A stretch of 31,162 nucleotides of DNA from the NCBI GenBank assembly GCA_024232295.1, contig JAAEPT010000013.1, forward strand, positions 1 through 31,162, read 5' to 3'. This document shows positions 1,446-19,737 of this stretch, in pieces. The notes below the pieces were generated by a model. It did no database searches. It was not told the origin of the DNA and saw nothing but the letters and a program-made list of their open reading frames with translations. Numbering within the stretch: the first letter of the stretch is position 1; each line of letters opens with the position of its first letter. This DNA comes from Cytophagales bacterium. GTDB lineage: Bacteria > Bacteroidota > Bacteroidia > Cytophagales > JAAEPT01. A program made the translations under genes and the position numbers.

Positions 1446-2603
1446 ATGAAAATAGATTTTATTGAAAAATTAAAACAAAGTATTGAAAATGAAGAATTCA
1501 TTAAATGTACTTTGGGAAAAATAAAAAGTAAAGAAGAACCTAATCTTCAAAACATTTATATAAAGCCTATCAATATTAAGGATGAATATGTTTTGTCATT
1601 CTTATATAGACACAAAACAAAAGATGTCACAAAAAACTTTTCTATTACTGAAGCCATTGACAAAATCTCGAGTTTAATTGGTAATGAAGTACTAAGTGCA
1701 CATTCTTTTTCAACTGAAGAAAATTTAGAGCTTTTATTTAATAAAAAGAGAAAAGCAACACTTCGCAACCTCCCTCCTACTCTAAAAAAAGAAAGTTCTG
1801 AACACAATCGAACAAAAAGGAGATTAATTAGTGCTGAAAATAATATTTACTTAAAAAGATTAGGCGTTGTTTCTTCTAAGAATGAAGTTTATCACAATAA
1901 ACAAGATAAATTTAAACAGATTAATAAATATGTTGAAATTGTAGAAGCACATCTTAAGGATTTAGACCTCTCTCCTAGTATACATATTGTTGACATGGGT
2001 TCTGGAAAAGGGTATTTAACTTTTGCTTTGTATGATTTTTTGAAAAATTCATTAAATTTAGATGTTCATATCACAGGAATAGAGCTCAGAAAAGAGTTAG
2101 TTGACCTTTGTAATGATATTGCAAAAGAGGCTAATTTCACAAATCTTACTTTTAAAGCTCAACTAATAGAAGAATATCAATGTGAACAACTAGATATTTT
2201 AATTGCTTTGCATGCTTGTGACACAGCAACTGATGATGCTATTTTTAAAGGACTTTCTGCTAATGCTTCCTTCATTATGTGTGCTCCTTGTTGCCACAAA
2301 CAAGTTCGTAAACAAATGAATTGTACTACAGAACTACAAGGTATTTTAAAACACAATATTTTTGAAGAAAGGCAAGCAGAAATGGTGACTGATGGAATAC
2401 GTTCATTAGTTTTAGAAGGGTTTGGCTACCAGACACAAGCTTTTGAGTTTATTTCAAATGAACATACAGGGAAAAATGTAATGATTATTGGAAAGAAAAA
2501 CTCAAATGAACATAAAAAAGAAGCTTTTGAACAAATCCAATTAATCAAACGTAATTTCGGAATTGACAAGCACTATTTAGAAACACTAATAGAAAAACTA
2601 TGA
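1446..2603 (+). CDS. Class I SAM-dependent methyltransferase
   Basis: Motif I is IVDMGSGKGYLTFAL (hh-D-h-G-x-G-x-G). A downstream acidic residue (ITGIELR) and LHACD motif follow. The ORF is 385 aa with an N-terminal extension. Its stop overlaps the next start (ATGA at 2600-2603). Confidence 0.8.
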   Translation: MKIDFIEKLKQSIENEEFIKCTLGKIKSKEEPNLQNIYIKPINIKDEYVLSFLYRHKTKDVTKNFSITEAIDKISSLIGNEVLSAHSFSTEENLELLFNKKRKATLRNLPPTLKKESSEHNRTKRRLISAENNIYLKRLGVVSSKNEVYHNKQDKFKQINKYVEIVEAHLKDLDLSPSIHIVDMGSGKGYLTFALYDFLKNSLNLDVHITGIELRKELVDLCNDIAKEANFTNLTFKAQLIEEYQCEQLDILIALHACDTATDDAIFKGLSANASFIMCAPCCHKQVRKQMNCTTELQGILKHNIFEERQAEMVTDGIRSLVLEGFGYQTQAFEFISNEHTGKNVMIIGKKNSNEHKKEAFEQIQLIKRNFGIDKHYLETLIEKL

Positions 2604-3673
2604 TAAAAAATTTAATAACTAAAAAAAGACTTATATATGTAGCTGTATTTCTTGTTTTTGTAGGACTTATTGAAATCCTTATTTATTTTGAAAAACAAGC
2701 AAACGGAAACATTACTTCTCTTGCCGATGGCTTATGGTATGGATTAGTAACCCTTACCACTGTAGGTTATGGAGATTATTCTCCAGTCTCCCCTATGGGT
2801 AGAATTATTGCAATTATCTTTTTATTCGCCAGTTTGGGACTTTTGGGTTTCTTGGTGGGTAATGTAACAAATAAAGTCACAAACTATATGGAAAAGAAAA
2901 AACTAGGACAATTTGGAACAAACTTCAAAAATCACATTCTTCTTATTGGTTGGAATGATTTTGCAAGACAAGTTACAGATGAAATCATCAAAACATCTCA
3001 CCCTGTTGCTATTGTAACAAACAATAAAAATGATATTGATCTAATCAATGATTCCTATGAAGAGAATGATAATGTTTTCTGTATGTTTGCTGACTATCAT
3101 AATCTAGAAGCATTACACAAAGTAAATATTGAAAAGTCTGCTACCGTATTTGTAAATCTTGATGATGATACCGAAGTTTTAGTTTATCTTTTGAATCTGA
3201 AACAACACTTTAGAAAATTACAAATTGTAGTTTCATTAAATAATGCAAACTTAAAAAATACTTTTCTTGAAGCTGGAGTAACTTATGTAGTTTCTAAGAG
3301 TGAAATTGCTTCTAAACTGGTTGCTAGTTTTATCTTTGAGCCAGATGTAGCTACTCTTACAGAAGATATGATGTCAACAGTAAGTGCAGGAAATGGACAA
3401 GACTTTGACATTCAACAATATGAGGTAACAAAAGATAATCCTTTCTTCAGTAAAAATTGTTTTGATACTTTCATGGATTTAAAGCTAAATTATGATAGCA
3501 TTTTACTAGGAATCTCAAAATTTGAAGATAATAAATGGAAGCTTATTAAAAATCCATCAAAAGAAGTGACTGTAGGCTTAGGAGATTACTTAATTCTAAT
3601 GGCAAATGGGGATAATAAACAAAGTTTAGAAAATGATTTTAATGTACCTGAAGGTAAAATCTTAAAAAACTAA
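2600..3673 (+). CDS. Potassium channel protein: two TM helices, a pore loop and a TrkA-N/RCK-like cytoplasmic domain
   Basis: The K+ selectivity filter TLTTVGYGD lies between two hydrophobic helices. It is followed by ILLIGWNDFARQV, a Rossmann-like RCK beginning. Confidence 0.85.
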   Translation: MIKNLITKKRLIYVAVFLVFVGLIEILIYFEKQANGNITSLADGLWYGLVTLTTVGYGDYSPVSPMGRIIAIIFLFASLGLLGFLVGNVTNKVTNYMEKKKLGQFGTNFKNHILLIGWNDFARQVTDEIIKTSHPVAIVTNNKNDIDLINDSYEENDNVFCMFADYHNLEALHKVNIEKSATVFVNLDDDTEVLVYLLNLKQHFRKLQIVVSLNNANLKNTFLEAGVTYVVSKSEIASKLVASFIFEPDVATLTEDMMSTVSAGNGQDFDIQQYEVTKDNPFFSKNCFDTFMDLKLNYDSILLGISKFEDNKWKLIKNPSKEVTVGLGDYLILMANGDNKQSLENDFNVPEGKILKN

Positions 3674-3679
3674 CATAAT

Positions 3680-4426
3680 ATGTTGACAATATTAGGAATC
3701 ATTGTAGCTCTGGCAATTGTATTTGTTGTTAATTTTTTGATCGTCAAAAAAATTGAGGAACAGCCTGATAATCGTTTTCAGAATTCGGTTCTTATTAAAA
3801 ATCCTGAAGAAGTTGCCTTATTATTCCATGATATCAAACATGCTGTAAAAGTGTGTTTGCTGATATTGGAAACAGAGCGATATATTGTTTTTAATACAAG
3901 AAGAACAAAGTTCAAGAAAACAAAAAAAACATTTGAAATAAAAAAATCACCATTAATTCATCTAGTTTATCAAAAAGCTTTTAGATTTCATGGAGAACAA
4001 ATATCTGTTGAAGAGGTAATTGAAAGAATCGAAAAGTTTCAAGGATTTGAGGAGAATTTTTATCATAAACTTCAAGAAAATGGTATCAAAAAACCTTTGA
4101 GGCATTTTGATATGCTTTTCTTTACTAGATTTGTAAGTATATTATTGATTTCAATTATTTGTTTAATAATCCCAACAATCAATAATGTAAATGGATTATA
4201 CTTTCTCTTGTCAATTATCTTGGGGGGTGCAGCAATCTTTTTGATTTTTACACAATTGAAAATTGCTGAGTTGACTGAAGAAGGAGAAGAATATATTCGA
4301 ATGAAGAAAAGAAGTATTAGTAAATCTTTTCCAGATGATCCTAATGTGTATGCTCAATCAATGCATATTGCTAAAGTAGGAGAAAAAGGGTTTATAGAGT
4401 TGCGTAAAAAATATTATTTGACCTAA
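3680..4426 (+). CDS. Hypothetical membrane protein (about 3 TM helices)
   Basis: Intact 248-aa ORF immediately downstream of the channel gene. It has an N-terminal TM, two further TM segments near residues 140-190 and a Lys-rich linker. No motif recognised. Confidence 0.55.
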   Translation: MLTILGIIVALAIVFVVNFLIVKKIEEQPDNRFQNSVLIKNPEEVALLFHDIKHAVKVCLLILETERYIVFNTRRTKFKKTKKTFEIKKSPLIHLVYQKAFRFHGEQISVEEVIERIEKFQGFEENFYHKLQENGIKKPLRHFDMLFFTRFVSILLISIICLIIPTINNVNGLYFLLSIILGGAAIFLIFTQLKIAELTEEGEEYIRMKKRSISKSFPDDPNVYAQSMHIAKVGEKGFIELRKKYYLT

Positions 4427-5952
4427 TGCCAATGCCTCCAATCATTCAAGTAGTACTCTAAAATAACTGGTTTATTTAGAGTACTTATTGTTTTTTCTGG
4501 GACCAAAACATCTTTTTCGAAGTTAAAAATGGAATGTAGAACTTCATTTGTAAGATATTCTGTTTCTACATTTAGTTTTATAGGATTAGGTAAGACTTTA
4601 TTGGTTGCCAAAACCCAACCCCAATCACCAAAAGAAGGAACGTAGGCATGACAAGGATAAGTGTATTCAAAACCACTTGCCTTTACTGTCCTATCAATAC
4701 ACCAAAAAGTATGCTTAGCAAAGTAAACACTTGTTGCTTGTGTCATAAAAACTCCTGTCTCTTTCAATCTCTTTCTCACCAACTTGTAAAATTCTCGACT
4801 ATATAAACGAGCTAATGACGTATTATTAGGATCTGGTAAATCAATGATTATTGCATCATATTTTTTTTCATTTTTCAACAAAAATTGGAAAGCATCTTGG
4901 TGAATTACTTTTACTCGTTCATTTGTTAAACTATTTTGATTGGCTTGTTTGATATAATGATTTTGAGTAGAAATTTGATTTACTAAAGGATCAATATCAA
5001 TAATTGTTAATTCTTTTAACCCCTGATATTTCAACATTTCTCTAGCTCCTAATCCATCTCCTCCTCCTAGCATTAACACTTCTTGACAATCCTGTTTTAC
5101 AGAAAATGGAACATGAACTAAGATTTCATGATAACGATGCTCATCGATTGTAGAAAACTGTAAATTTCCATTCAAAAACATTCGAACATCATTTTTACTT
5201 TTGGTCACTACAATCCTTTGATAAGGGGACTGTTTGGCATATACAATTCTATCTTCATACAAACCTTGCTCCCAAATACGCAACAACTTTTTGGAGAACA
5301 CAAGCATTAGTAATAGAAATACACTAATGACAATACTCCATAGTAAGTATATTTTTCGTTTTCTGGTAGATAGTTTTTTAGCAAAGAAAATAAGGTTCAA
5401 AAAACCTATACCCATATTAATCAACCCAAAAATCAATGAAGATTGAAATGTTCCAAAGAAAGGGAGAAAAATAAAAGGAAAAATTAATGTTGCTAATAAA
5501 GCTCCAAAGTAATCTAGTGTTAATACATTGGATAAGTTTATTTTCAACTTATCATAATCCTCCATAACTCTTGTGAGCAGAGGAACTTCTAAACCTGTAA
5601 GTACACCTATCACTGTAATGAGTAAGAGCATGATAGGATAATAAAAAAACGAGAGGGAGAAAACCCAATAAAGAATAGGAATAGCCAAACCTCCTATAAA
5701 ACCCAAAAGAATTTCTACAAGAATGAATTTAGTTAATAGGTCTGTGTTAATTTTTCGAGAAATTAATGCACCAATACCCATAGCTGCCATATAAACACCT
5801 ATTGTAATGGAAAATTGCTTCACACTATCTCCCATAAAATAAGAAGAGGCTGTGCTAATCAATAACTCATAAATGATAGAACAAAGTCCTGCAATGAAAA
5901 TGGAAAAAATAAGGACAAATTTCTCTTTTTGCTTCTTCTTATTTTCCTGCAT
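4423..5952 (-). CDS. Membrane-anchored polyamine aminopropyltransferase (spermidine synthase-like), paralog 1. It has a multi-TM N-terminal half and a SpeE catalytic C-terminal half. The start is probably the MQENKKK ATG at 5952; the ORF extends to 5979.
   Basis: LMLGGGDGLGAREMLKY is the dcSAM-binding GGGDG motif. TIIDIDP and IIIDLPDPNN are the SpeE acceptor-site D-x-x-DP motif. About 7 hydrophobic helices occupy the first 230 aa. Overall it is collinear with the ORFs at 6885 and 12570. Confidence 0.85.
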   Translation of the reverse strand: MQENKKKQKEKFVLIFSIFIAGLCSIIYELLISTASSYFMGDSVKQFSITIGVYMAAMGIGALISRKINTDLLTKFILVEILLGFIGGLAIPILYWVFSLSFFYYPIMLLLITVIGVLTGLEVPLLTRVMEDYDKLKINLSNVLTLDYFGALLATLIFPFIFLPFFGTFQSSLIFGLINMGIGFLNLIFFAKKLSTRKRKIYLLWSIVISVFLLLMLVFSKKLLRIWEQGLYEDRIVYAKQSPYQRIVVTKSKNDVRMFLNGNLQFSTIDEHRYHEILVHVPFSVKQDCQEVLMLGGGDGLGAREMLKYQGLKELTIIDIDPLVNQISTQNHYIKQANQNSLTNERVKVIHQDAFQFLLKNEKKYDAIIIDLPDPNNTSLARLYSREFYKLVRKRLKETGVFMTQATSVYFAKHTFWCIDRTVKASGFEYTYPCHAYVPSFGDWGWVLATNKVLPNPIKLNVETEYLTNEVLHSIFNFEKDVLVPEKTISTLNKPVILEYYLNDWRHWH

Positions 5953-6196
5953 GTATTCCTCCTCCACGTTGACTACCACCTGTTACACTTCCACTTCTTA
6001 CACTTGGCTCTCCTCTATAATAAGAAACATTTCCTGTTCCATACCAAAATGATGGACCAGATGAATATGTTCTAGTTCCTTGATAATACTCTATATCATA
6101 TCCCTTTAAATAGCCCCAACCTTCTGAAGCATAATAAAACATTACTCCATACAAAAGAAGTAATATTGAAACTGTTGCAATTGAATATTTTAACAT
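5939..6196 (-). CDS. Small membrane-anchored Tyr/Gly/Ser-rich protein (85 aa). It resembles the C-terminal tail of the lipoprotein at 12643-13389.
   Basis: It has an N-terminal TM helix (SILLLLYGVMFYY) and then a low-complexity Y/G/S/R segment ending GGGIHAGK. Its stop overlaps the SpeE-like start by 14-41 nt. It is directly downstream of the 6199-6765 ORF with a 2-nt gap. Confidence 0.5.
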   Translation of the reverse strand: MLKYSIATVSILLLLYGVMFYYASEGWGYLKGYDIEYYQGTRTYSSGPSFWYGTGNVSYYRGEPSVRSGSVTGGSQRGGGIHAGK

Positions 6197-6198
6197 GA

Positions 6199-6765
6199 TT
6201 AATTTTCTTCTGTGTTAAACAATGAATCTTTATAAATAATAAGTATTGATATGATACTAATGATAAGTGAAGAGACACCCACCATAAGGAAAATCAAAGG
6301 ACTTCCTGACCTTTTGTATAAATGAACATAAAAAGGATAAGCACTTCCACTTTTTGTTTCAACACATTTAATTTCTAAACTTGTTTTACCTTCTGGAAGA
6401 ACAAAATCATACTCTAATTTCCTATCATCTTCTGCCCAATAATATCCTTCATCATAACCTGACTCTTTCCACAATTCTTTCCCTAAAGAAAATAAAGTAG
6501 TTTCATTTTCATCTTCTGCACTCACCTCCAAAAACACCCATTGGTTATTTTCTATATCAGAACGAATTTGCAAATTATAAACTCCTTGCTCCAAAGAATC
6601 CATTACCAAAATACCATCTTGTGATGATGATTTTTCAGTTATATGACTTTCAGAAAGAAAAAAAGAAGTGGAAATAAGACACAATATTCCAAATGCAAAT
6701 ACAATTACTGTGGTATTTTTCCACAACTTTTCAATATTGATAAATTTATCCTCAAAAAATGGCAT
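6199..6765 (-). CDS. Hypothetical bitopic membrane protein (188 aa); possible distant paralog of the 13406-13960 product
   Basis: It has an N-terminal MPFFEDKFINIEK, TM helices near residues 18-40 and 160-180, and an acidic middle part (GVYNLQIRSD...YDEGYYWAEDD). It is the first gene of a minus-strand three-gene cassette. Confidence 0.6.
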   Translation of the reverse strand: MPFFEDKFINIEKLWKNTTVIVFAFGILCLISTSFFLSESHITEKSSSQDGILVMDSLEQGVYNLQIRSDIENNQWVFLEVSAEDENETTLFSLGKELWKESGYDEGYYWAEDDRKLEYDFVLPEGKTSLEIKCVETKSGSAYPFYVHLYKRSGSPLIFLMVGVSSLIISIISILIIYKDSLFNTEEN

Positions 6766-6843
6766 AATCTCTTATTTGATAAAGCTTTCACTATTATTTG
6801 TTCGAATTTAAAAAAATTAGATGATATTTATCTATCAAACCCT

Positions 6844-6851
6844 ATTTTTGA
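6844..6851 (+). promoter_or_regulatory. Candidate Bacteroidetes-type -7 promoter box TATTTTTG for the 6885 operon
   Basis: It matches the TAnnTTTG -7 consensus of Bacteroidetes sigma-A promoters, about 34 nt upstream of ATG 6885. No clear -33 TTTG was seen. Confidence 0.25.
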
Positions 6852-6884
6852 AAGAATTTTATCTGATTGTTTAACTTTTAGTTT

Positions 6885-8414
6885 ATGTCAAAAAAGAAAT
6901 ATTCTACCATTGTAATGGCTTCTCTCTTCGCAACAGGTCTTGCAGGGATTGTTGCAGAATATATATTAGCCACTTTAGCCACTTATTTTCTTGGGAATGC
7001 AGTATTACAATGGACTATGATTTTGTCTGTAATGTTGTTTTCAATGGGCTTGGGGAGTAGAATTAGTAGATATTTCAATAAAAATCTACTAGAGAAACTT
7101 GTTATCATTGAATTTGTACTAAGTGTACTTGCTTCTATTTGCACCCTAAGTACTTATGGAATGATGGCTGTGACAGAATCAATTGGGGTAATTATTTATG
7201 GATTTAGCATTGCTATTGGTTTGTTAATTGGAATGGAAATTCCTTTGGCTACACGTGTTAATAGTGATTATGAAGAGTTAAGGGTCAATATTGCCTCTGT
7301 CATGGAAAAGGACTATTATGGTAGCTTATTAGGAGGTGTATTTTTTGCCTTTGTTGGACTTCCTTTCTTTGGCTTGACTTATACTCCATTTATCTTAGGT
7401 TGTATCAACTTTGCAGTAGCAATAGTTCTTTTTATTCAACTAAAATCATTAATTAAGGTTGAGTTTCAAAAGAAGTTAATTGGTGGAGCTATTGGTGTAG
7501 GATTGATTATTGGAATAAGTTTATACTTTGCCCCTTCTATTGTCTTGTTTGGAGAACAAAGTCGATATGAGGATAAAATCATTTATGAAGAACAAACTCC
7601 TTATCAATTGATTAAAATCACTGAACGAAACAATATTCATCGTCTTATCATTAATGATGACCAACAACTAAATACTTCTGATGAATATTTGTATCATGAA
7701 CCATTGGTACACCCAGTAATGAAACTGACCAATACTCCAAAACATGTATTGATTCTTGGTGCTGGTGATGGTTGTGCAGTAAGAGAGGTTTTGAAATATC
7801 CTTCAGTAGAAAAGATAACATTGGTAGATTTAGACCCTGCAATGACTCGTTTGGCTTCTAGTAATCCAATTTTTACAGAGCTTAATAAGAATGCTTTCCA
7901 AAATCAAAAGGTGAATATTGTTCATGCTGATGCCTTCAATTATTTAGAAGATAATGAAGTTTATTTTGATGTAATGATTATTGACTTTCCAGACCCAAAA
8001 ACAGTAGATTTGAATCGTTTGTACACCCATGAGTTTTATAAGCTTTGTGCAAAAAGATTAAGATCTCATGGAGCAATTATTACACAAGCCATTAGTCCTT
8101 ACTTTACACCAAGTGCTTTTCAGTGTGTAGAAAGAACAGTAAAACATGCAGGTTTTCATACATTACCTATTCACAACCATGTAATGTCTTTTGGGGAATG
8201 GGGTTGGATTATTGGTTCTAAGAAAATAACAAGTCCATTACTCAAAGAGCGTTTACAAGCTATGCAGTTTGATAAGGTGGAAACAAAATGGCTAACACAT
8301 GATGCCATGTCATTAATTACTTCTTTTGGAAAAGACATTATCAAACTTGATTCAATTGAAGTGAACTCAATTCATAACCCAATATTATATCGCTATTACG
8401 AAAGAGGTCAATAA
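6885..8414 (+). CDS. Membrane-anchored polyamine aminopropyltransferase (spermidine synthase-like), paralog 2
   Basis: LILGAGDGCAVREVLKY, TLVDLDP and IIDFPDPKT are SpeE motifs. The N-terminal half is multi-TM. It is very similar to the 11035-12570 product (for example FATGLAGIVAEYILATLATYFLGN versus FATGFAGIVAEYTLSTLASYFLGN). The TAATG overlap with the next gene lies at 8412-8416. Confidence 0.85.
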   Translation: MSKKKYSTIVMASLFATGLAGIVAEYILATLATYFLGNAVLQWTMILSVMLFSMGLGSRISRYFNKNLLEKLVIIEFVLSVLASICTLSTYGMMAVTESIGVIIYGFSIAIGLLIGMEIPLATRVNSDYEELRVNIASVMEKDYYGSLLGGVFFAFVGLPFFGLTYTPFILGCINFAVAIVLFIQLKSLIKVEFQKKLIGGAIGVGLIIGISLYFAPSIVLFGEQSRYEDKIIYEEQTPYQLIKITERNNIHRLIINDDQQLNTSDEYLYHEPLVHPVMKLTNTPKHVLILGAGDGCAVREVLKYPSVEKITLVDLDPAMTRLASSNPIFTELNKNAFQNQKVNIVHADAFNYLEDNEVYFDVMIIDFPDPKTVDLNRLYTHEFYKLCAKRLRSHGAIITQAISPYFTPSAFQCVERTVKHAGFHTLPIHNHVMSFGEWGWIIGSKKITSPLLKERLQAMQFDKVETKWLTHDAMSLITSFGKDIIKLDSIEVNSIHNPILYRYYERGQ

Positions 8415-9529
8415 TGAAAAATCAGTGGTTATTTTCTCGAAAAATTGATTTGTTATGGTTGGGCTTACCTGTTTGGCTTTCTTGGGTCTTTTGTTTTTTA
8501 CTTCCACAAGAAATTCACCAATTCAAAATGCCTATTTGGGCTTGGGCAATCTTTATTTTGGGAATAGATGTAAGTCATGTTTGGAGTACCATTTGGAGAA
8601 CTTACTTTGACAAACAAGAATTTAAAAGTCATAAAAAAACACTTATTCTTGCTCCTATTTGTGCTTTTGTAGGCATTATGTTAATTACACAAGTTTCAAC
8701 CTTCTTCTTTTGGAGGATCCTTGCTTACATTGCTTTATTCCACTTTATCAAGCAACAATATGGCTTCTTTGCCCTTTATCGAGCAAAATATAAACACAAG
8801 ATTAATCATCGTTTCTTAAAGGATAAATTTGTCATCTACTTTTCCATGCTCTACCCTGTTTTTCATTGGCACTTAAATGGAAATCGTTTGTTTAATTGGT
8901 TTATTAATGGGGACTTTGTCACACTCAAAAGTTATCTATTACAATTAGGACTTACAGAATCTTTCTTTATTTACTTTAATGGAATTGCCAATACAATTTA
9001 CTGGCTAATATTGATAATTTGGTTAATTGAAGAAATCTATCAATGTAAAAAGCACAAACTAGAACTTCCTTTTGGTAAAATCATTTGGTTATTCGGTACA
9101 GGGATGAATTGGTATTTAGGTATTGTATATTTCAATTCTGACATTGCATTTTCAGTCACAAATGTAGTTGCACATGGTATTCCATATTGTATTTTAGTAT
9201 TTATCTATGTTGAAAAGAAAAAAGAACTTGTACAACAAAAAAGTTTCACTATACCTAAGTGGGTTCTACATATTTCAATGATGCTAATTGCCATTTTAAT
9301 TTTTGCATTTGTAGAAGAATATTTTTGGGATTTATTTTTATGGAGAGAAAAAACAGCCTTTTTTGGTACAATTCTCCATTATCCAACACAAGTCATCAAA
9401 GACCCTCTAGGACAACGATTAGTCATTGCATTACTTTCTATTCCACAAGTTACTCATTACATCATTGATGGCTTTATTTGGAAGAATAATGATAAGAACC
9501 CATTCCTAAAACCTGTACTCTTTTCATGA
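8414..9529 (+). CDS. Polytopic integral membrane protein (371 aa, about 9 TM helices), function unknown
   Basis: Aromatic-rich hydrophobic helices run throughout. It is translationally coupled to both neighbours (TAATG at 8412-8416, ATGA at 9526-9529). Confidence 0.65.
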   Translation: MKNQWLFSRKIDLLWLGLPVWLSWVFCFLLPQEIHQFKMPIWAWAIFILGIDVSHVWSTIWRTYFDKQEFKSHKKTLILAPICAFVGIMLITQVSTFFFWRILAYIALFHFIKQQYGFFALYRAKYKHKINHRFLKDKFVIYFSMLYPVFHWHLNGNRLFNWFINGDFVTLKSYLLQLGLTESFFIYFNGIANTIYWLILIIWLIEEIYQCKKHKLELPFGKIIWLFGTGMNWYLGIVYFNSDIAFSVTNVVAHGIPYCILVFIYVEKKKELVQQKSFTIPKWVLHISMMLIAILIFAFVEEYFWDLFLWREKTAFFGTILHYPTQVIKDPLGQRLVIALLSIPQVTHYIIDGFIWKNNDKNPFLKPVLFS

Positions 9530-11061
9530 AAAGGCGAGATTTCTTAAAAATATCATCACTTGCTCTTTTTCCTTGGACTGCCTGTACTTATTCTCAACAA
9601 GAAAATCACATTCCCATAAAGGTACTTTCTGACCACAAAATAGGGCATTTAGTGTGGAAAAGTATCTTCTTTCCTAAAGAACGAGCAGTCAAAAAACATG
9701 ATATTCTAATTGTAGGTGGTGGAATTGCTGGTTTAAGTAGTGCTTATCAATTACAAGACAAGGACTTTATACTTTGTGAAGCTTCTGAAAACTTGGGAGG
9801 AACATCAAGTGCTTATGAATACGAAGGAATGCCTTTTGCACAAGGAGCACATTATGATCTCTCTTATCCACAAAATTATGGAAGGGAGTTTTTGAATATG
9901 CTTTCTTCCTTAAATCTTATCAACTATAATCAAAAAACAGAGCTTTGGGACTTTACTGATACACAACATTTAATTCACCCTAGTATTGAAAGTAGGGCTT
10001 TTGTAAAAGGAGAATTTTATGATGATGTAATTACGGATAAAGAATTTGGCAAAAAGCTTCATACTATCTTAGATAAATATGAAAATCAAGTCCCCTCTCC
10101 CACTCGACTCATTAACAAAAAACTACATCATCTTAATGAGATTTCTTTCTTAGATTTTCTCAGAAAAGAAGGTTTAAATATTCCTGCTGAGTTTGTGAAT
10201 CAAATTGATTATCATATGATGGATGATTATGGTGGTACAGCTCAACAAGTCTCTGCTTTGGCTGGAATTCATTACTATAAATGTAGACCTTATTCAACTA
10301 AGAAAGATAATGTTAAACTCTTTTCTCCACCACAAGGAAATCATTATTTCATTGAGAAAATAAGTAAGAATATTCTTCACAAAGAACGACTACTTTGTCA
10401 AAGATTGGTCAAAAAGATTACTCCACTTACAAAAGGTTTTTCTGTAGAGGTGATTAATGCTCAAAGTCAAAAAATAGAACAATTTGAGGTAAATAAAGTG
10501 ATTTATGCAGGAACAAAACATGCTTTAAAGTATGTCTACCCACAAGATCATCATTTATTCAAAAATAATGAATATGCTCCTTGGCTAGTTGTTAATCTAG
10601 TTTTACCACATCAAGAACAATTTCCTGCTTATTGGCAGAATGAAATATTGAGCAATGAAAAAGCTTTTATGGGTTTTGTTAATTCTCATAGTCAGTTGAG
10701 ACCATCGGATTCTCCTTTTCAAGTACTAACTTCTTATTATTGCTTTCAGCCTGATGAACGAAAAAAAGTACTAGAAACTTTAGATAATCCTCGTCCATTC
10801 GTAGAAAACACAATTGAACATATTTCTAATTATTATGATGAAGACATCCGTCCTTATATCATTCAAGCTTTTATAAAAGGGATTGGGCATGCTATGGCAA
10901 TACCCAAACCTTATTTTTTATTGAACGACCAAAATCAACATAGGAGTCATGAAAACCTTGTCTATGCTGGTGTGGATAATGGCAGAATTCCAATTTTCCC
11001 AGAAGCTGTAGATAGCGGAATTTTGGCAAGTAACTTAATACATTCCCCAGTTTCCATTTAA
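9526..11061 (+). CDS. Tat-signal FAD-dependent oxidoreductase of the flavin amine-oxidase / phytoene-desaturase superfamily; a possible polyamine oxidase
   Basis: The N-terminus MKRRDFLKISSLALFPWTAC is a twin-arginine motif followed by a hydrophobic segment and a Cys. The dinucleotide fold is ILIVGGGIAGLSSAYQL, followed by CEASENLGGTS (E...GG motif). Confidence 0.7.
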   Translation: MKRRDFLKISSLALFPWTACTYSQQENHIPIKVLSDHKIGHLVWKSIFFPKERAVKKHDILIVGGGIAGLSSAYQLQDKDFILCEASENLGGTSSAYEYEGMPFAQGAHYDLSYPQNYGREFLNMLSSLNLINYNQKTELWDFTDTQHLIHPSIESRAFVKGEFYDDVITDKEFGKKLHTILDKYENQVPSPTRLINKKLHHLNEISFLDFLRKEGLNIPAEFVNQIDYHMMDDYGGTAQQVSALAGIHYYKCRPYSTKKDNVKLFSPPQGNHYFIEKISKNILHKERLLCQRLVKKITPLTKGFSVEVINAQSQKIEQFEVNKVIYAGTKHALKYVYPQDHHLFKNNEYAPWLVVNLVLPHQEQFPAYWQNEILSNEKAFMGFVNSHSQLRPSDSPFQVLTSYYCFQPDERKKVLETLDNPRPFVENTIEHISNYYDEDIRPYIIQAFIKGIGHAMAIPKPYFLLNDQNQHRSHENLVYAGVDNGRIPIFPEAVDSGILASNLIHSPVSI

Positions 11062-12570
11062 ATAATAATGATATAGCATTGGATTGGATGTTGTATTCAC
11101 CTTAACAGTAGACAAATCCATTTCACTTTTTCCAAAAGAAGTAATCAATAGCATTCCATCATTATTCAACCATTTTGTTTTTACATCATCAAAATGAAGA
11201 GACCTTAATGCCTTTTTTAATCCTTCTTTGTCCAGTGATTTATGACCAATCACAAAACCCCATTCTCCTAATGTAAGCACTTGATTATGAATTGGAGCTG
11301 TAGAAAACCCTGCAGATTCCATGGTGATATCAATACAATGAAATGCTTTGGTTGCAAACTGAGGCGAACCTGCTTGTGTAATAATTGCACCATTTGGTCT
11401 TAATTGATGATAACACAATTGATAAAATTCCTTAGAATACAACTTGGACAAATCAACAGATTTTGGATCTGGCAAATCCACAAAAATTGCATCATAAAAA
11501 TCTTTTGTTTGCTCTAAGAACTGAAAACCATCTTGATTAATAATTGTCAATTTTTCCGTTTCTAATGCTCCTTTGTTTAATGCTTTCAAAACAGGGTGAC
11601 TTCTTCCTATTTCTGTCATTTTAGGGTCTAAATCCACCATTGTAATTTTTTCTACAGATGGATATTTAAGCATTTCTCGAACAGCACAACCATCACCACC
11701 ACCCAAAATCAAAATATTTTTAGGCTGGTTTGCCATTTTCATCACAGGGTGTACTAATGGCTCATGATACAACCATTCATCTAGACTTGATAATTGCTGA
11801 TTACCGTTGATAAATAACCAATGATGGTCTTTCCATTGAGTAATGACAATTTTTTGATACTTACTTTGGTGTTGATAAATAATTTTTTCACGATAACGAG
11901 ATTGTTCACCGAACATCATAATAGGTTTAGCAAAGTAAATTCCAACAGCTAAAATAAGTGCAACTCCGAAACCCAATAATTGAAATAAGCGAAATCTAGA
12001 AATATGGCTTTTGAATCTAAAAAATAATAGAAATGCCACCAAGAAGTTAATTGCTCCCAATACAAATGGTGTATAAGTAAGCCCTAAGAATGGAATACCA
12101 ATAAAAGCAAAAAAACCTCCTCCTAGTAAACTACCAAAATAATCAACAGCCATTACAGAAGAGATATTTTCCCTTAAGTCTTGAAACTGTTCATTAATAC
12201 GAGTTACTAAAGGAATTTCCATTCCCACTAATAATCCCACAATAATACTTAGTAAATAAACAATAATTGCGGTGAACTCAGTAAGACCTGCTACAGTATA
12301 TACTACAATTGCAGAAAATGAAGAAAAAATGGATAACAGAAATTCTAAAATTAGAAATTTCTCTAATAACTTATCCTTAAAATATTTACTCAATTGACTA
12401 CCTAATCCCATTGAAAACATCATCACTGAAATAATCAATGTCCATTGTAATAGTTGGTTTCCCAAAAAATAAGATGCTAAAGTAGAAAGTGTGTATTCTG
12501 CTACAATTCCAGCAAAACCTGTAGCAAAAAGAGCAATCTTTAATAAATGTGATTTTGAATTTTGATTCAT
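11035..12570 (-). CDS. Membrane-anchored polyamine aminopropyltransferase (spermidine synthase-like), paralog 3
   Basis: LILGGGDGCAVREMLKY, TMVDLDP and FVDLPDPKS are SpeE motifs. The N-terminal half is multi-TM. Its 3' end overlaps the convergent oxidoreductase gene by 27 nt. Confidence 0.85.
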   Translation of the reverse strand: MNQNSKSHLLKIALFATGFAGIVAEYTLSTLASYFLGNQLLQWTLIISVMMFSMGLGSQLSKYFKDKLLEKFLILEFLLSIFSSFSAIVVYTVAGLTEFTAIIVYLLSIIVGLLVGMEIPLVTRINEQFQDLRENISSVMAVDYFGSLLGGGFFAFIGIPFLGLTYTPFVLGAINFLVAFLLFFRFKSHISRFRLFQLLGFGVALILAVGIYFAKPIMMFGEQSRYREKIIYQHQSKYQKIVITQWKDHHWLFINGNQQLSSLDEWLYHEPLVHPVMKMANQPKNILILGGGDGCAVREMLKYPSVEKITMVDLDPKMTEIGRSHPVLKALNKGALETEKLTIINQDGFQFLEQTKDFYDAIFVDLPDPKSVDLSKLYSKEFYQLCYHQLRPNGAIITQAGSPQFATKAFHCIDITMESAGFSTAPIHNQVLTLGEWGFVIGHKSLDKEGLKKALRSLHFDDVKTKWLNNDGMLLITSFGKSEMDLSTVKVNTTSNPMLYHYYLNGNWGMY

Positions 12571-12585
12571 TGCCTTAAAAAGAAA

Positions 12586-12619
12586 AATGGTAACTGTGCA
12601 AGTTACACAATTACCATTT
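12586..12619 (-). promoter_or_regulatory. Intra-operonic hairpin between the lipoprotein gene and SpeE-like paralog 3. The 9-bp stem AAATGGTAA/TTACCATTT encloses a nested GTAACT/AGTTAC mini-hairpin, followed on the minus strand by a TTCTTTTT tract about 15 nt before the ATG.
   Basis: Perfect inverted repeat 12586-12594 / 12611-12619. The inner repeat is 12592-12597 / 12600-12605. It looks like a terminator or attenuator. Confidence 0.4.
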
Positions 12620-12642
12620 CATTATACTTTGATATTATTAGA

Positions 12643-13389
12643 TTATTTACCAAATCCTCCACCGCTAGAACGGTAACTTCTGCTACTATTATAACGAGAA
12701 GTACCACGAGCAGAAGCTCTAGATCTTCTTGCTGAAGAAGATGAAGAAGACCATCCACTTTTATTTGCTCTACGAGAGAAGAAATCAGGACGCTTAGATT
12801 TATTGTAAGCACTATTTGTTCCATACTGAGGATTACTTACATTAGAACCATAGTAAGGACGACTTCCTCTGTATACACTAGAGTATGTACTGTAGTGATT
12901 ACGGTATACTCTACGAGAATGATCCATACCCAACATTGGAGACATATAAGAATAACGAGAATAGAAAATCCAAACTCCACCATTCCAAGAACCATAACGA
13001 GAGTTTCCAACATAACTATTGTATCCTGGAGGAGATGGTACTTTAGAAACTTTTCCATCTTCAGACTTAGAAGCTAACTCCATACCCAAATAATTTTCGT
13101 TTCTCCAGAAAAATGCTTTCGAAACTTTGATCTTATCTGTAGTCTTTTCGGTAATCTCATCACCTTTCTCTGTCAAAATCTTGTATTTATGATAGTATGT
13201 ATCAGAAAAAATACCTTCATCTACATCCATATCTTCTAAAATAATACTAAAAGATTTCTCATCCTTCATTTGCTTGATAAGCTTATCAACAGGAGTTTCT
13301 TTGTACTTAGGCCCACCACAGCTACATGAAGATAAAAAGGCTAAGCCCATAGAAATAATACTTAATAAAAATAAGTGTCTCATAATCAT
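12643..13389 (-). CDS. Lipoprotein with a Tyr/Ser/Arg/Gly-rich low-complexity C-terminal tail
   Basis: The signal peptide plus lipobox is LAFLSSCSCGG. There is a globular N-domain, and then YSRYSY...SSSSSARRSRASARGTSRYNSSRSYRSSGGGFGK. The biased codon repeats spawn spurious ORFs on both strands here. Confidence 0.7.
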   Translation of the reverse strand: MIMRHLFLLSIISMGLAFLSSCSCGGPKYKETPVDKLIKQMKDEKSFSIILEDMDVDEGIFSDTYYHKYKILTEKGDEITEKTTDKIKVSKAFFWRNENYLGMELASKSEDGKVSKVPSPPGYNSYVGNSRYGSWNGGVWIFYSRYSYMSPMLGMDHSRRVYRNHYSTYSSVYRGSRPYYGSNVSNPQYGTNSAYNKSKRPDFFSRRANKSGWSSSSSSARRSRASARGTSRYNSSRSYRSSGGGFGK

Positions 13390-13405
13390 TTATTAATCTA
13401 TAAAT

Positions 13406-13960
13406 TTAGTTTGCCACTGGAATGATATTCGAAATTTCAAACTCCTCGATATAAACACCTACAGAAGCTTCAATTTCGTATTCCCCCCAACGATCAATTC
13501 CAATGAATTTTTTTTCTGTTTGATCCAAAAACTCCCAATTTACTACTTTAGACCAACTATCATCATAATTTGGATCATCTTCCCAATCACGACAGTGCCC
13601 TAAATTTTCACTTGATAAGTAATAAGTTTCACCTTTATACTCAATTCGTTTCATTGGTTCATCATCCTCCACAATATCATGCTTTAAGTTTTTGTCAATA
13701 GACATGATATTCACTTTTTCAGAGATAGATAATTCCAACTCATCTTCATCAGCTACATACAAATAACGAACTTCATCTCCGCTATCTAGCTTGTATTCTT
13801 TTGCATAAAAGTTATTTCCCCAGTCATACTCATAAATCTCCTTTACTTGCCATGACTTTAAGAAGTAGTCAATAAAGTCTCCTTCTTGTAAATTGCGAAC
13901 AGTAACCTCCCCTCTAGAAGGCTTCTCTTCCTTTTTATTGAAAAAATCAAATAAACCCAT
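13406..13960 (-). CDS. Hypothetical acidic cytoplasmic protein (184 aa); first gene of the second three-gene cassette
   Basis: N-terminus MGLFDFFNKKEEK, then TVRNLQEGDFIDY...YDWGNNFYAKEYKLDSGDE. No TM. It lies 16 nt upstream of the lipoprotein gene on the same strand. Confidence 0.65.
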   Translation of the reverse strand: MGLFDFFNKKEEKPSRGEVTVRNLQEGDFIDYFLKSWQVKEIYEYDWGNNFYAKEYKLDSGDEVRYLYVADEDELELSISEKVNIMSIDKNLKHDIVEDDEPMKRIEYKGETYYLSSENLGHCRDWEDDPNYDDSWSKVVNWEFLDQTEKKFIGIDRWGEYEIEASVGVYIEEFEISNIIPVAN

Positions 13961-14036
13961 AAATTTTCCTTTTTAAACTTAGACGAAAGATAACAAATAT
14001 TTTTTTGTATCTTGTTTTTTTTAAACGAAAAAATAG

Positions 14037-14435
14037 ATGAACAAACCCGAAAAAAATCTTGGGCAACATATTCTTGCTGAATTTTATGAGTGTGATGCTG
14101 ATATATTGAATGATGTCGATTTTTTGGAAAAGACATTTAATGAGGCATCAGAGGCAGCAAATGCAACAATTGTAAAATCTGTATTTCACCCTTTTTCACC
14201 TGTAGGTGTTACAGGAGTAGTTGTAATCATGGAGAGTCATATTTCTATTCATACATGGCCTGAGTTTGGTTATGCGGCAGTAGATTTTTTCACATGTAGT
14301 GATAAAATGCAATATCAGAAAGCATATGACTATATCGCAAACAAGTTAAAATCAAAAAATCACACTTCTCAAAAAGTAGAAAGAGGTTTTCCTCAGCATC
14401 TCAAAGAAACACACTTAATGAATAGTATATTATAA
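14037..14435 (+). CDS. speH: S-adenosylmethionine decarboxylase proenzyme, pyruvoyl-dependent, small SpeH/class 1 type
   Basis: HILAEFYECD and VVIMESHISIHTWPE are present. The predicted self-cleavage site is Glu-Ser at nt 14232-14237. Size is 132 aa. Confidence 0.9.
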   Translation: MNKPEKNLGQHILAEFYECDADILNDVDFLEKTFNEASEAANATIVKSVFHPFSPVGVTGVVVIMESHISIHTWPEFGYAAVDFFTCSDKMQYQKAYDYIANKLKSKNHTSQKVERGFPQHLKETHLMNSIL

Positions 14436-14445
14436 GAAGGAAGAT

Positions 14446-15243
14446 TTACTCTTCCTTTTTTTCATTTAAGTTATTTAGTCTATCCAATAAAGTTTGGACT
14501 TGCTTTTCTAATTGTACAACTCGGTACTCAATATTTTTAGTTTTCTTAAAAAATGTAGTGTACCTACCACAAAGCTCCCAAACTTCCAATACTTCATTTT
14601 TTCCAAGTTCCATGGTATCATAAGTAATATTATCAGCTTTTAATGAAATCAAGTGGTCAACAGATACAACTCGTCTTGTAAAAACACCATGGTTCGCAAC
14701 AAAAACATAGACTCTATTTAATTCAATATCTCGAATATCAACAGATTTTGTAATTAGAATATCACCATTATACATTCCACCACTATCCATCAACATTTCA
14801 CTACCTTTCAATTCAAAAGCACGAACCCTTCCTTCTGAAATTCTTTCTGGAAATTCAACAATTGGTAGTTTTGAGATATAATCCATTACCTTACATTTAT
14901 TACAGTAATCCTTATATTCTTTAATTTTTACCAAAGGAATACTCTTTTCTGTATGAACTTTCTTTTCTTTTTCTGAAGCTACAGAAGAAGACAATGCCTT
15001 TCTCTCTTTAAATATATCAAAATGATAAACATCATTTACCGTCAGCTCTTTTGTAAGCAAATCACCAATTGCTACTCCAAAATGATTGGCTATTTGAATA
15101 ATTGTATCAATTTTGGGATCAGCTCTTCCTTCTTCATAAGCTCCAACACTTGTACGAGCAAGGTCAAATTTTTTGGCAAATGCTGCTTGACTTAGCTTTC
15201 TAACTGTACGAATCTTTCGTATATTCTTACCTATATATGACAT
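14446..15243 (-). CDS. XRE-family HTH transcriptional regulator with a C-terminal S24 (LexA/CI-like) peptidase-fold domain and a coiled-coil tail
   Basis: The N-terminal IRKIRTVRKLSQAAFAKKFDLARTSVGAYEEGRADPKIDTIIQIANHFGV is a Cro/C1 HTH. ELKGSEMLMDSGGMYNGDILI resembles the LexA GDSM...GDLV core. It is divergent from the yjfI/pspA-like operon. Confidence 0.75.
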   Translation of the reverse strand: MSYIGKNIRKIRTVRKLSQAAFAKKFDLARTSVGAYEEGRADPKIDTIIQIANHFGVAIGDLLTKELTVNDVYHFDIFKERKALSSSVASEKEKKVHTEKSIPLVKIKEYKDYCNKCKVMDYISKLPIVEFPERISEGRVRAFELKGSEMLMDSGGMYNGDILITKSVDIRDIELNRVYVFVANHGVFTRRVVSVDHLISLKADNITYDTMELGKNEVLEVWELCGRYTTFFKKTKNIEYRVVQLEKQVQTLLDRLNNLNEKKEE

Positions 15244-15552
15244 ATTTCAAAGATAATCTATTTTTTTTGACATCAAAATCCGCTAAAGGAAACAAATAGC
15301 CAACATTTTGAGATTATCTATGTTTTTTTAGAAATTATTTTGCCAATATTTTTGGATATTCCAGTTTTCTTAGTACCTTTACAATGTCAAAAGGAAATAA
15401 CGGGAACAAAATGAAGAAAAATACATACAAAAGCAGTCACCCTCCATAACTTAGAGCCCTGCTGTTTTATAAAAATTTAAAATTGAATATTTGGATTTCG
15501 TTTAGTAACTTAAAACAAGTATTTAGAATTTTTAAAATAAACACAAAGAATC

Positions 15553-15948
15553 ATGGAAAGTAACTTTTTAAAAGTAAAAGATTACATTTTAGAATTACAG
15601 TACGATATCGTACACGAAAGTGCAGAAGATGGGGTATTCGTAATCAACAAAGCAACTGAAGGAATTTCAAACTTAGTTATCTGTTGTGCAGAACCTATCT
15701 TAATTATTGAACAGTTTTTGTTTGAGTTATCAGGAGATGCAAGTGCTATTCACAAAGAGCTCCTACAAAAAAGCAGAGATATTATCCACGGAGCTTTCGT
15801 ATTAGACGAAACAGGAACAAAAGTAATCTACCGTGATACTTTGCAATTAGAAAACCTTGACCTTAATGAATTAGAAGGGACATTTAACTCTCTTGCCGTT
15901 TTATTAAGTGAATATGGTGATAAAATTATCGAATTTTCCAACAATTAA
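15553..15948 (+). CDS. Small acidic cytoplasmic protein; YjfI-like (T3SS-chaperone-like fold) partner of PspA, assigned by size and position
   Basis: 131 aa, no TM, placed 11 nt upstream of the PspA-family gene. This matches the E. coli yjfI-yjfJ arrangement (YjfI is 133 aa). Sequence-level family assignment was not verified. Confidence 0.45.
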   Translation: MESNFLKVKDYILELQYDIVHESAEDGVFVINKATEGISNLVICCAEPILIIEQFLFELSGDASAIHKELLQKSRDIIHGAFVLDETGTKVIYRDTLQLENLDLNELEGTFNSLAVLLSEYGDKIIEFSNN

Positions 15949-15959
15949 AATTTAAGACT

Positions 15960-16676
15960 ATGAACATATTTAAAAGATTATTCAAAATTGGTGAAGCTGA
16001 AGCTCATTCTGCAGTAGATAAATTAGAGGATCCTATCAAAATGACGGAACAAGGTATCCGTGATATGAAAAAAGATTTAGATAAAAGTTTACATGCATTA
16101 GCTGAAGTGAAAGCATTAGCAATTCGTTCTAAAACTGATTTAAATTCATATAGAAGTAAAGTTTCTGACTACGAGAAAAAAGCAATGGCTTTATTACAAA
16201 GAGCTGAGCTTGGTCAAGTTTCTCCAGAAGAAGCTGATCGTTTAGCATCTGAAGCTTTGGTTAAAAAAGAAGAGAGCCAAGGTCAAGTAGATAGATTATC
16301 TTCTGAGCAAGCTACTTATGATAAGCAAGTTGGTCAGTTAGAGGCAAGTGTAAGAACAATTCGTTCAAATATTAGTAAGTGGGAAAATGAGTTGAAAACA
16401 TTGAAAGCTCGTGTAAAAGTAAGTTCTACTACTAAAAACTTAAACAAGCAATTAGCTCAAATTGATTCTACTAGCACAGTAGCTATGTTAGAAAAAATGA
16501 AGAACAAAGTTGCTGAAGAGGAAGCTTTAGCTGAGTCTTATGGAGAAATCGCAAACGCTAGTAAGAGTGTTGACGATGAGATTGACAAAGCATTAGAAGG
16601 TTCTGCTGAAGTAAAAGCACATGATTCATTAGCTGCATTAAAAGCGAAGATGGCTGCCAACAAATCTAACCTATAA
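15960..16676 (+). CDS. PspA/IM30 (phage shock protein A / Vipp1 / ESCRT-III superfamily) protein, YjfJ-like
   Basis: The N-terminal MNIFKRLFKIGEAEAHSAVDKLEDPIKMTEQGIRDMKKDL is the typical PspA family start. The whole 238 aa is heptad coiled-coil with a low-complexity C-terminus. Confidence 0.85.
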   Translation: MNIFKRLFKIGEAEAHSAVDKLEDPIKMTEQGIRDMKKDLDKSLHALAEVKALAIRSKTDLNSYRSKVSDYEKKAMALLQRAELGQVSPEEADRLASEALVKKEESQGQVDRLSSEQATYDKQVGQLEASVRTIRSNISKWENELKTLKARVKVSSTTKNLNKQLAQIDSTSTVAMLEKMKNKVAEEEALAESYGEIANASKSVDDEIDKALEGSAEVKAHDSLAALKAKMAANKSNL

Positions 16677-16691
16677 TAGAAGGTTATATAA

Positions 16692-17444: not shown

Positions 17445-17483
17445 AATCTTAAACTTTTTATAAACGTAAATATAGTAACTCAA

Positions 17484-19649: not shown

Positions 19650-19669
19650 TTTTATTTTAACAATACTTT

Positions 19670-19707
19670 GCCTGATATTTCCTTTTGGGGAGTATCAGGC
19701 TTTTTTT
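19670..19707 (+). terminator. Rho-independent terminator-like hairpin between flotillin and the giant ORF (stem GCCTGATA/TATCAGGC, 15-nt loop, then T7)
   Basis: Perfect 8-bp inverted repeat 19670-19677 / 19693-19700, followed by TTTTTTT at 19701-19707. Confidence 0.6.
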
Positions 19708-19737
19708 ACACTTTTTTTACTCATTTAGTACACTGTA

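Follow-up and report, generated by a model that had tools for sequence, protein, structure and literature searches.

The closest described relative of the locus reported here is an operon recognised by Ravi et al. (2024, mSystems, PMC11237479), in which PspA and CesT/Tir proteins are encoded together with a 7TM-spermine-synthase, a YjfL/DUF350 protein, a Ctha_1186 lipoprotein and a DUF4178 protein; SO_3765 of Shewanella oneidensis provides an example. The same authors noted an association with K+ channels, stated with reference to Li et al. 2019 that 'other substrates' may be aminopropylated by such systems, and gave as one option that the PspA system 'monitors polyamine concentration' (PMC11237479). 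No experimental study of this system, in which PspA is combined with a spermidine synthase (SpdSyn) domain behind seven transmembrane (TM) segments, was found in the searchable literature. The contig JAAEPT010000013.1 of a metagenome-assembled Cytophagales bacterium (a complete contig of 31,162 bp with about 31% G+C, hereafter called the window) carries three genes for such membrane-fused aminopropyltransferases, paralogs 1 to 3, beside a PspA module. Most of its neighbouring genes have counterparts in the published account: CesT_Tir, PspA, DUF4178, a tailed lipoprotein, 7TM-SpdSyn, S-adenosylmethionine decarboxylase (AdoMetDC), an amine oxidase and a K+ channel are all named in that paper and are all present in the window. 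In contrast to the operon of Ravi et al., the window has no DUF350, its CesT-PspA genes stand inside a flotillin/AAA+ operon, its SpdSyn genes are three in number, and it encodes an additional pair of proteins of 188 and 85 residues (x188 and x85). Because of the CesT/PspA/flotillin/AAA+/K+ channel context, we assign the locus to the system of Ravi et al. 2024. The three enzymes are characterised by family membership, intact catalytic motifs, conserved gene linkages and a clade structure, and we consider it probable that they form one composite envelope-stress locus, in which three membrane aminopropyltransferases act with PspA-CesT-flotillin-AAA+ membrane repair. Enzymes of this type, and their association with PspA, were already known; no description of the x188/x85 pair was found in the literature that could be searched, and a Gly-Lys end shared by two exported partner families and a charge-based topology of the enzymes are new.

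Three further enzyme groups serve for comparison. The NF002956/PRK03612 family, which we take to correspond to COG4262 ('predicted spermidine synthase with an N-terminal membrane domain'), has the same build as the paralogs, about seven TM segments followed by PF01564, with no structural difference; no acceptor substrate is established for it in the literature that could be searched. Fusions of a major facilitator superfamily (MFS) domain to SpdSyn (NF037959) likewise join a membrane domain to a SpdSyn-like domain and share the linkage to AdoMetDC and DUF350, but the paralogs fit NF002956 far better than NF037959. Membrane-fused spermidine-synthase homologs are said to occur in thousands of genomes, and Li and colleagues, working with other species, reportedly found that such fusion enzymes make no spermidine, that organisms with the fusions are without it and that an E. 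coli speE mutant is not complemented. Canonical SpeE and SpeD share with the window the catalytic fold and motifs and a supply of decarboxylated S-adenosylmethionine (dcSAM) from a class 1b AdoMetDC. Unlike canonical SpeE, the paralogs possess an N-terminal 7-TM domain, an extra C-terminal segment of about 60 residues, non-metabolic partners and a catalytic domain predicted to be extracytoplasmic.

Paralog 1 (4423-5952, minus strand), paralog 2 (6885-8414, plus strand) and paralog 3 (11035-12570, minus strand) match the NCBIfam model NF002956/PRK03612, 'polyamine aminopropyltransferase', from end to end. Their scores of 613, 545 and 558 bits exceed the cutoff of 472 bits, and positions 8-521 of the 522-position model are covered. 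PF01564 was detected in the C-terminal half of each, with 142, 128 and 137 bits where 22.9 bits is the cutoff and with profile positions 1-177 of 186 covered. For all three the NF002956 score is about ten times the NF037959 score, although paralogs 1 and 3 do pass the NF037959 cutoff of 40 (57 and 55 bits). The closest solved structures are the polyamine aminopropyltransferases of Thermus thermophilus (1UIR/3ANX) and Pyrobaculum (7XIF), with E values of about 1e-33. The glycine-rich dcSAM loop, which reads GAGDG in paralog 2 and GGGDG in the other two, aligns with the solved SpeE structures, the acidic residue after the next strand lies in an I/V-D-[IL]-D segment that aligns with MVDID of Thermus SpeE, and the catalytic DLPDP/DFPDP and DE[HYW][RL]YHE segments are invariant in the three paralogs, the former aligning with Thermus DLTDP. 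The motifs agree with E. coli SpeE as well, whose DCTDP aligns with the D-[LF]-P-D-P of the paralogs; the acceptor-site tyrosine of the E. coli 'P-T-Y' would be a histidine in the paralogs, which is put forward as a lead only.

By profile match, the three proteins belong to a known and curated family of membrane-fused aminopropyltransferases. A sequence-only reading of this DNA, made before any database search, had described three open reading frames (ORFs) of about 510 residues, each uniting a multi-TM domain with an intact aminopropyltransferase domain. That claim stands because of the NF002956 and PF01564 matches, the intact motifs and the seven hydrophobic segments, and the ORFs it named are present in the window as described. 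Profile searches of the C-terminal halves, the check on which that reading had staked the claim, found them aminopropyltransferase-like with the dcSAM-binding motifs retained. Its statement that the pathway differs from the canonical, soluble SpeE/SpeD one is borne out, all three paralogs being integral membrane proteins by hydropathy, and so is the nearby AdoMetDC (speH), which was confirmed at 14037-14435 on the plus strand by PF02675 (139 bits) and TIGR03330 (146 bits) as a class 1b enzyme of the SpeH/SpeD type with a visible pyruvoyl processing motif, ESHISIHTWPE. The same reading took paralogs 2 and 3 as the closest pair and paralog 1 as more divergent, which is correct, but its wording 'very close' is too strong for an identity of 55%; paralog 1 shares 35-36% with either. 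The start of paralog 1 was placed at the ATG at 5952, giving 509 residues, although the ORF itself reaches as far as a GTG at 5979. For paralog 3, a look-up of the exact sequence gave no record.

Seven hydrophobic segments lie within residues 1-221 of the paralogs and are kept in 20 homologs. Across these 20 SpeE homologs the mean number of lysine plus arginine residues per loop is 3.5, 0, 2.9, 0.1, 2.6, 0.5 and 3.8. Alternating loop charge together with seven helices points to an N-terminus inside and a catalytic domain outside the cytoplasm, so that hydropathy and charge counts predict catalytic domains facing the periplasm. Four acidic residues, E25, E76, E118 and D143, are invariant and situated in or beside the TM helices. 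Weak MFS_1 matches were obtained for 2 of 16 TM domains and are compatible with an MFS half plus one helix; a comparison of the TM domain against the Protein Data Bank (PDB) returned no match.

A neighbour-joining tree divides the SpeE enzymes into two deep clades, of which clade A contains paralog 1 with the x188/x85-linked enzymes and clade B contains paralogs 2 and 3 with other Bacteroidota enzymes. Enzymes from Desulfobacterota, Nitrospirota, Bdellovibrionota and Alphaproteobacteria share 46-55% identity with paralog 1. In the window the paralog 1 gene is tightly packed on the minus strand with those of x188 (6199-6765) and x85 (5939-6196), the latter overlapping the start of paralog 1. 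Neither partner has a Pfam or NCBIfam match. A word-index search for x188 returned x188 itself alone; the notion of an orphan was dropped when an exhaustive HMMER search gave 192 cluster representatives at E<=1e-3, an un-curated family in which the conserved core, LFSFGKELWxExGYDxxGxWxE, has a TM helix on either side. An AlphaFold2 model of x188, computed with the family alignment as input, displays a nine-strand β-sandwich between the two TM helices at a mean predicted local distance difference test score (pLDDT) of 91.9. In the x85 protein a single TM helix is followed by an exported tail, rich in Gly, Tyr and Ser, of which the last residues are RGGGIHAGK. After its TM helix the family reads RGWGYxGYxGYxxGPSFFYWGGP..Y..PSVRxGSxGGPxHRGGGxxGGK, strongly conserved across phyla, and a C-terminal GGG-x(1-4)-K is found in 15/15 sequences.

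A scan for the x188 family, with one genome taken per species, yielded 15 loci from Desulfobacterota, Nitrospirota, Bdellovibrionota and Alphaproteobacteria. The gene order x188, x85, 7TM-SpeE, the last with paralog 1 as its best match, was observed in every one of the 15 loci from these four phyla, and genes for x85 homologs of 77-106 residues immediately precede the SpeE gene in each of the 15 as well as in L001, a locus of a related metagenome-assembled genome (MAG). Further upstream, many of the x188 loci encode, in order, CesT, PspA, DUF4178 and a multi-TM protein of 286 residues. Multi-TM ORFs of 284-288 residues in six x188-type loci occupy the slot that DUF350 holds in L019, L021 and L022, and by this position they are candidate DUF350 proteins. 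An AdoMetDC or a K+ channel is situated near many x188-type loci. Since DUF4178 and x188 occur in the same x188-type operons, they are two different parts of one system. The searchable literature, including the text and one supplement of PMC11237479, yielded no description of the x188 and x85 partner pair. In L001, x188 is present in two tandem copies (16934-18145; 216 and 183 residues) that are about 36% identical to the window x188, in contrast to 81% for the lipoprotein of the same two loci. Judged by these two figures, x188 appears to be a fast-evolving component.

Paralog 3 has a different set of partners. It follows, on the minus strand, genes for a soluble DUF4178 protein of 184 residues (13406-13960; PF13785, 69 bits) and a lipoprotein of 248 residues (12643-13389; lipobox LSSC) with a globular N-terminal domain and a low-complexity tail rich in Ser, Arg, Tyr and Gly that terminates in SSGGGFGK. 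The lipoprotein has 77 homologs; 66 of the 71 full-length sequences end in GK, the typical end being RS(R)GGGFGK. Likened by description, it appears to fit the 'LipoSIG+Ctha_1186+Low-comp' protein of PMC11237479 in its lipobox, globular domain, tail and operon position. Searching outward from the lipoprotein homologs, we reached the arrangement (CesT-PspA)-DUF4178-lipoprotein-DUF350-SpeE in Roseivirga, a Melioribacteraceae MAG and Fulvivirga ulvae, to whose enzymes paralog 3 is 56-58% identical. The arrangement matches the Shewanella operon of Ravi et al. (PMC11237479). Paralog 3 with its DUF4178 protein and lipoprotein, compared by gene content and order, therefore looks like the published version of the operon, here lacking DUF350. 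L002, L019, L021 and L022 have DUF350/YjfL in their DUF4178-lipoprotein-DUF350 operons. In the window, no Pfam match to DUF350 was found among the ORFs scanned (1446-19649), and tblastn with five DUF350 proteins gave nothing credible in the window or in L001; a weak tblastn match at 1563-1985 falls inside a soluble methyltransferase and was rejected as spurious. DUF350 may have its gene in another part of the genome. The DUF4178-lipoprotein pair of L002 adjoins AdoMetDC, DUF350 and CesT-PspA, and that of Bernardetia (L020) has none of these beside it.

The DUF4178 protein of the window contains no TM helix, and those of the x188-type loci (L006, L009, L013-L015 and L017) bear an N-terminal TM anchor. 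Its start, MGLFDFF, is confined to Bacteroidota-type DUF4178 proteins and may be a membrane-binding peptide. This start resembles the amphipathic beginning of the neighbouring PspA (M-x-I-F-K-R-L-F). Natural fusions link the partner proteins of the two arrangements. DUF4178 and x188 are fused in either order in P0126, P0220 and P0221, and DUF4178 is fused to the lipoprotein in P0032 and P0055; some of these proteins have N-terminal zinc ribbons, the architectures being zinc ribbon-DUF4178-x188, x188-DUF4178 and DUF4178-lipoprotein. Such fusions suggest a functional tie between DUF4178, x188 and the lipoprotein, and they would place DUF4178 on the inner side of the membrane and the x188 and lipoprotein domains on the outer side. 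The partners agree with an outward-facing catalytic domain, on account of the lipobox, the TM anchors of x85 and x188 and the fusion proteins.

The sequence-only reading had interpreted the genes around paralogs 1 and 3 as two copies of one duplicated cassette, composed of a protein of about 185 residues, a tailed exported protein and a membrane SpeE, and had made the claim depend on similarity between the two proteins of about 185 residues. These proteins, x188 and DUF4178, proved to be unrelated, and the duplication is refuted. BLASTP found nothing between them, and HHalign, run with a 119-sequence x188 alignment (105 after redundancy filtering) against an 8-sequence DUF4178 profile, gave a probability of 0.3%. 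The TM anchors ascribed to 6199-6765, of which there are two, and their absence from 13406-13960 were correct, but the common M-x-[FL]-F-[DE]-x-F start is not family-defining: the M-x-F-F start of x188 is confined to its closest relatives and is no feature of the family. A comparison of x188 with the N-terminal domain of the lipoprotein likewise found no homology. The two tailed proteins do have in common a Tyr/Ser/Gly/Arg-rich make-up and a GGG-x-GK end, as had been noticed in part, but their homology is unsupported. BLASTP of x85 against the lipoprotein tail gave an E value of 1.3, HHalign gave 2% and aligned the signal region only, and a profile of the x85 tail scored real lipoprotein tails no better than shuffled ones, with 0/71 above the 99th percentile. 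As the shuffle test reveals nothing beyond composition, our claim is one of a shared end and composition, not of homology. The conserved C-terminal GGG-x-GK is common to two otherwise unrelated exported partner families.

Nor are paralogs 1 and 3 each other's closest relatives, as a duplicated cassette had implied; they fall in different deep clades, and paralog 3 is nearer to paralog 2 and to other Bacteroidota enzymes. Because the two arrangements are found in other genomes and the SpeE enzymes fall into two clades, the window is best described as a place where the two forms of one system occur together, and not as a duplication. Sets A (x188, x85 and paralog 1) and B (DUF4178, lipoprotein and paralog 3) would then be alternative forms of the same published operon that have been joined in one genome.

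Paralog 2 heads a third set, an operon of three plus-strand genes in which stop and start codons of neighbours overlap. The sequence-only reading had given its companions as a polytopic membrane protein and an exported flavin oxidoreductase, and both were recovered: a polytopic membrane protein of 371 residues (mem371, 8414-9529) and an amine-oxidase-like protein of the flavin adenine dinucleotide type, 511 residues long (9526-11061; PF13450, PF01593 and PF01266), which begins with a twin-arginine translocation (Tat) signal, MKRRDFLK. A search with mem371 gave 613 homologs, all unnamed and devoid of Pfam domains, and no Pfam or PDB match was found for mem371 itself, profile search included. 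About six histidines and many aspartates and glutamates are invariant in the family. Because of these invariant residues mem371 is a candidate membrane enzyme, uncharacterised and possibly a metalloenzyme. In L001 and Fulvivirga ulvae, too, its gene adjoins those of a membrane SpeE and an amine oxidase, and it occurs without any SpeE nearby on a Planctomycetota contig (L023). The arginine pair of the MKRRDFLK start is kept in the L001 and L022 homologs of the amine oxidase; since the twin-arginine signal is conserved in these two, export is predicted, most likely in the folded state with flavin bound. In the cultured isolate Fulvivirga ulvae (L022, CP089981), positions 5266-11168 encode AdoMetDC, a membrane SpeE, mem371 and the amine oxidase, back to back with a SpeE-DUF350-lipoprotein-DUF4178-PspA-CesT operon. 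The SpeE beside mem371 in that genome is of a third, more distant type, 40% identical to paralog 2 over 287 residues and not an ortholog. Judged by such recurrence in other genomes, three distinct sets of partners, stable in evolution, stand beside the PspA module, namely A with paralog 1, B with paralog 3 and C with paralog 2.

The PspA module itself occupies 15553-25206 on the plus strand and comprises CesT_Tir_1 (15553-15948; PF22550, 173 bits), PspA/IM30 (15960-16676; PF04012, 142 bits), a YqiJ-like TM protein, a flotillin-like Band-7 protein of 721 residues (PF01145) and an AAA+ ATPase of 1822 residues, the YqiJ-like gene lying between those of PspA and Band-7. Homologs of the ATPase in L001 and L002 carry DUF3686 and AAA domains. 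This CesT-PspA-flotillin-AAA+ order corresponds to the other type of PspA operon of Ravi et al. (PMC11237479). Between the module and the AdoMetDC gene, on the minus strand, lies a gene for a LexA-like protein with XRE-HTH and S24 peptidase domains (14446-15243, by Pfam matches). Because its position beside CesT/PspA is kept in L001, L002 and Fulvivirga ulvae (L022), the protein is a candidate regulator, perhaps of the whole locus. Three divergent or intergenic regions were read by eye for a shared operator, and nothing convincing was seen in them.

At the other side of the enzymes, a K+ channel with an RCK/TrkA-N domain is encoded at 2600-3673 on the plus strand (PF07885 and PF02254); K+ channels follow the SpeE gene in L008, L015 and L021. 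The region 2600-4426 also contains, downstream of the channel, a protein of 248 residues with four predicted hydrophobic segments and no family, which is kept beside paralog 1 in L001. Upstream of the channel, 448-2603 encodes an N-acetylmuramoyl-L-alanine amidase (PF01520) and a soluble Methyltransf_32 protein, for which no link to the SpeE/PspA system was seen. L001 has the same layout as the window and also three SpeE genes. The other loci retrieved have one SpeE copy, or two in Fulvivirga ulvae, which makes three an unusual number.

Taken as a whole, the locus suggests the following course of events. A single cytoplasmic AdoMetDC would make dcSAM, which would reach the periplasm-facing catalytic domains through the acid-lined TM domain. 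The aminopropyl group would be passed to an acceptor in the membrane or envelope, probably not putrescine and probably at the outer face of the inner membrane, and under stress the product would give some component of the envelope a different charge or chemistry. The enzymes would act jointly with the neighbouring PspA-CesT-flotillin-AAA+ genes as part of a membrane-stress response. Several points weigh against this scheme. We know of no dcSAM pool outside the cytoplasm, and the TM domain would have to deliver dcSAM; the orientation of the enzymes is predicted from hydropathy and charge counts alone. The NCBIfam label of these proteins is plain 'polyamine aminopropyltransferase'. CesT-PspA stands in a separate operon with the regulator gene between, so that co-regulation with the SpeE genes is an assumption. 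DUF350, a constant member of the published operon, was not found in the window by Pfam or tblastn, and DUF4178-lipoprotein pairs without a membrane SpeE within 10 kb occur in L002 and L020.

The intact catalytic and dcSAM-binding motifs, the adjacent AdoMetDC gene and the equivalog name given to all three proteins would also suit ordinary polyamine synthases that happen to be anchored in the membrane and convert putrescine, agmatine or other diamines into free spermidine or longer polyamines for the general needs of the cell, the paralogs differing only in amine preference. Their nearest relatives of solved structure come from thermophiles and build long polyamines, and the amine oxidase of the paralog 2 operon would suit polyamine turnover. 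Such a role is nevertheless rather unlikely in our judgement, because the genes are tightly and anciently linked across phyla to the non-metabolic x188/x85, DUF4178/lipoprotein and PspA/CesT proteins, family scans of the window ORFs found no putrescine-forming decarboxylase, and the predicted topology sets the catalytic domain outside the cytoplasm. The reported lack of spermidine, and of complementation of the E. coli speE mutant, said to come from Li and colleagues, also speaks against it. Polyamine synthesis at or across the membrane, as put forward in the sequence-only reading, is possible on the gene content seen here. In another reading the domains mainly sense the levels of polyamine or dcSAM and relay the signal to PspA through the membrane domain, with little turnover. 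It would match the option 'monitors polyamine concentration' of Ravi et al. (PMC11237479) and the linkage of a ligand-gated K+ channel to the system. The catalytic residues, however, are all conserved between clades that are only 35% identical, and a dedicated AdoMetDC is kept beside the enzymes in many loci; because conserved catalytic residues and a retained AdoMetDC are hard to explain without a reaction, we regard a mainly sensory function as very improbable.

The acceptor might be a membrane lipid that bears an amine, for example phosphatidylethanolamine, an ornithine lipid or another amino lipid, with the TM domain presenting the head group and the added charge strengthening the membrane by analogy with MprF or EptA. 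The direct joining of a conserved TM domain to the catalytic domain and the linkage to PspA and flotillin, which act on bilayers, would be in keeping with a lipid acceptor, and the reported failure to make free spermidine would be explained. Against it, a lipid leaves no role for the tail proteins, whose co-occurrence is strict, scans of the window proteins detected no domain for lipid handling, and the TM domain is transporter-like by its weak MFS matches and unlike known lipid-modifying enzymes. We hold lipid modification to be quite unlikely.

The tail proteins offer another candidate acceptor. Lysine amines are sites of covalent chemistry in other systems: diatom silaffins carry long-chain polyamines linked to lysine, and Braun's lipoprotein (Lpp) is joined through its C-terminal lysine. 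The partner tails of the window resemble these proteins by analogy, as exported low-complexity peptides of Ser, Gly, Tyr and basic residues with a conserved Gly-Lys end, although they have no sequence relationship to either. As a speculation to which we give little credence, the periplasmic domains, supplied with dcSAM through their own 7-TM domain, might aminopropylate the C-terminal Gly-Lys of the exported tails, of x85 in the case of clade A and of the Ctha_1186-type lipoprotein in the case of clade B. A membrane-tethered, protein-bound polyamine would result and reinforce the envelope under PspA-sensed stress, and the Tat-exported amine oxidase would trim or recycle it.

Membrane-fused spermidine-synthase homologs occur in many bacterial phyla, and three such enzymes at one locus, with partner sets that differ from one to the next, constitute a natural comparison set. 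The widespread x188/x85 pair, of which the literature that could be searched gave no description, is one lead. The Gly-Lys end of both partners lies on the predicted catalytic-domain side of the membrane and is a concrete acceptor candidate. Were Gly-Lys aminopropylation true, bacteria would have a novel modification of proteins that parallels the lysine-linked polyamines of the silaffin type, and the long-sought acceptor of the membrane SpdSyn fusions would be identified. If either lead gives the acceptor, aminopropyl chemistry derived from S-adenosylmethionine would be linked to envelope-stress repair.

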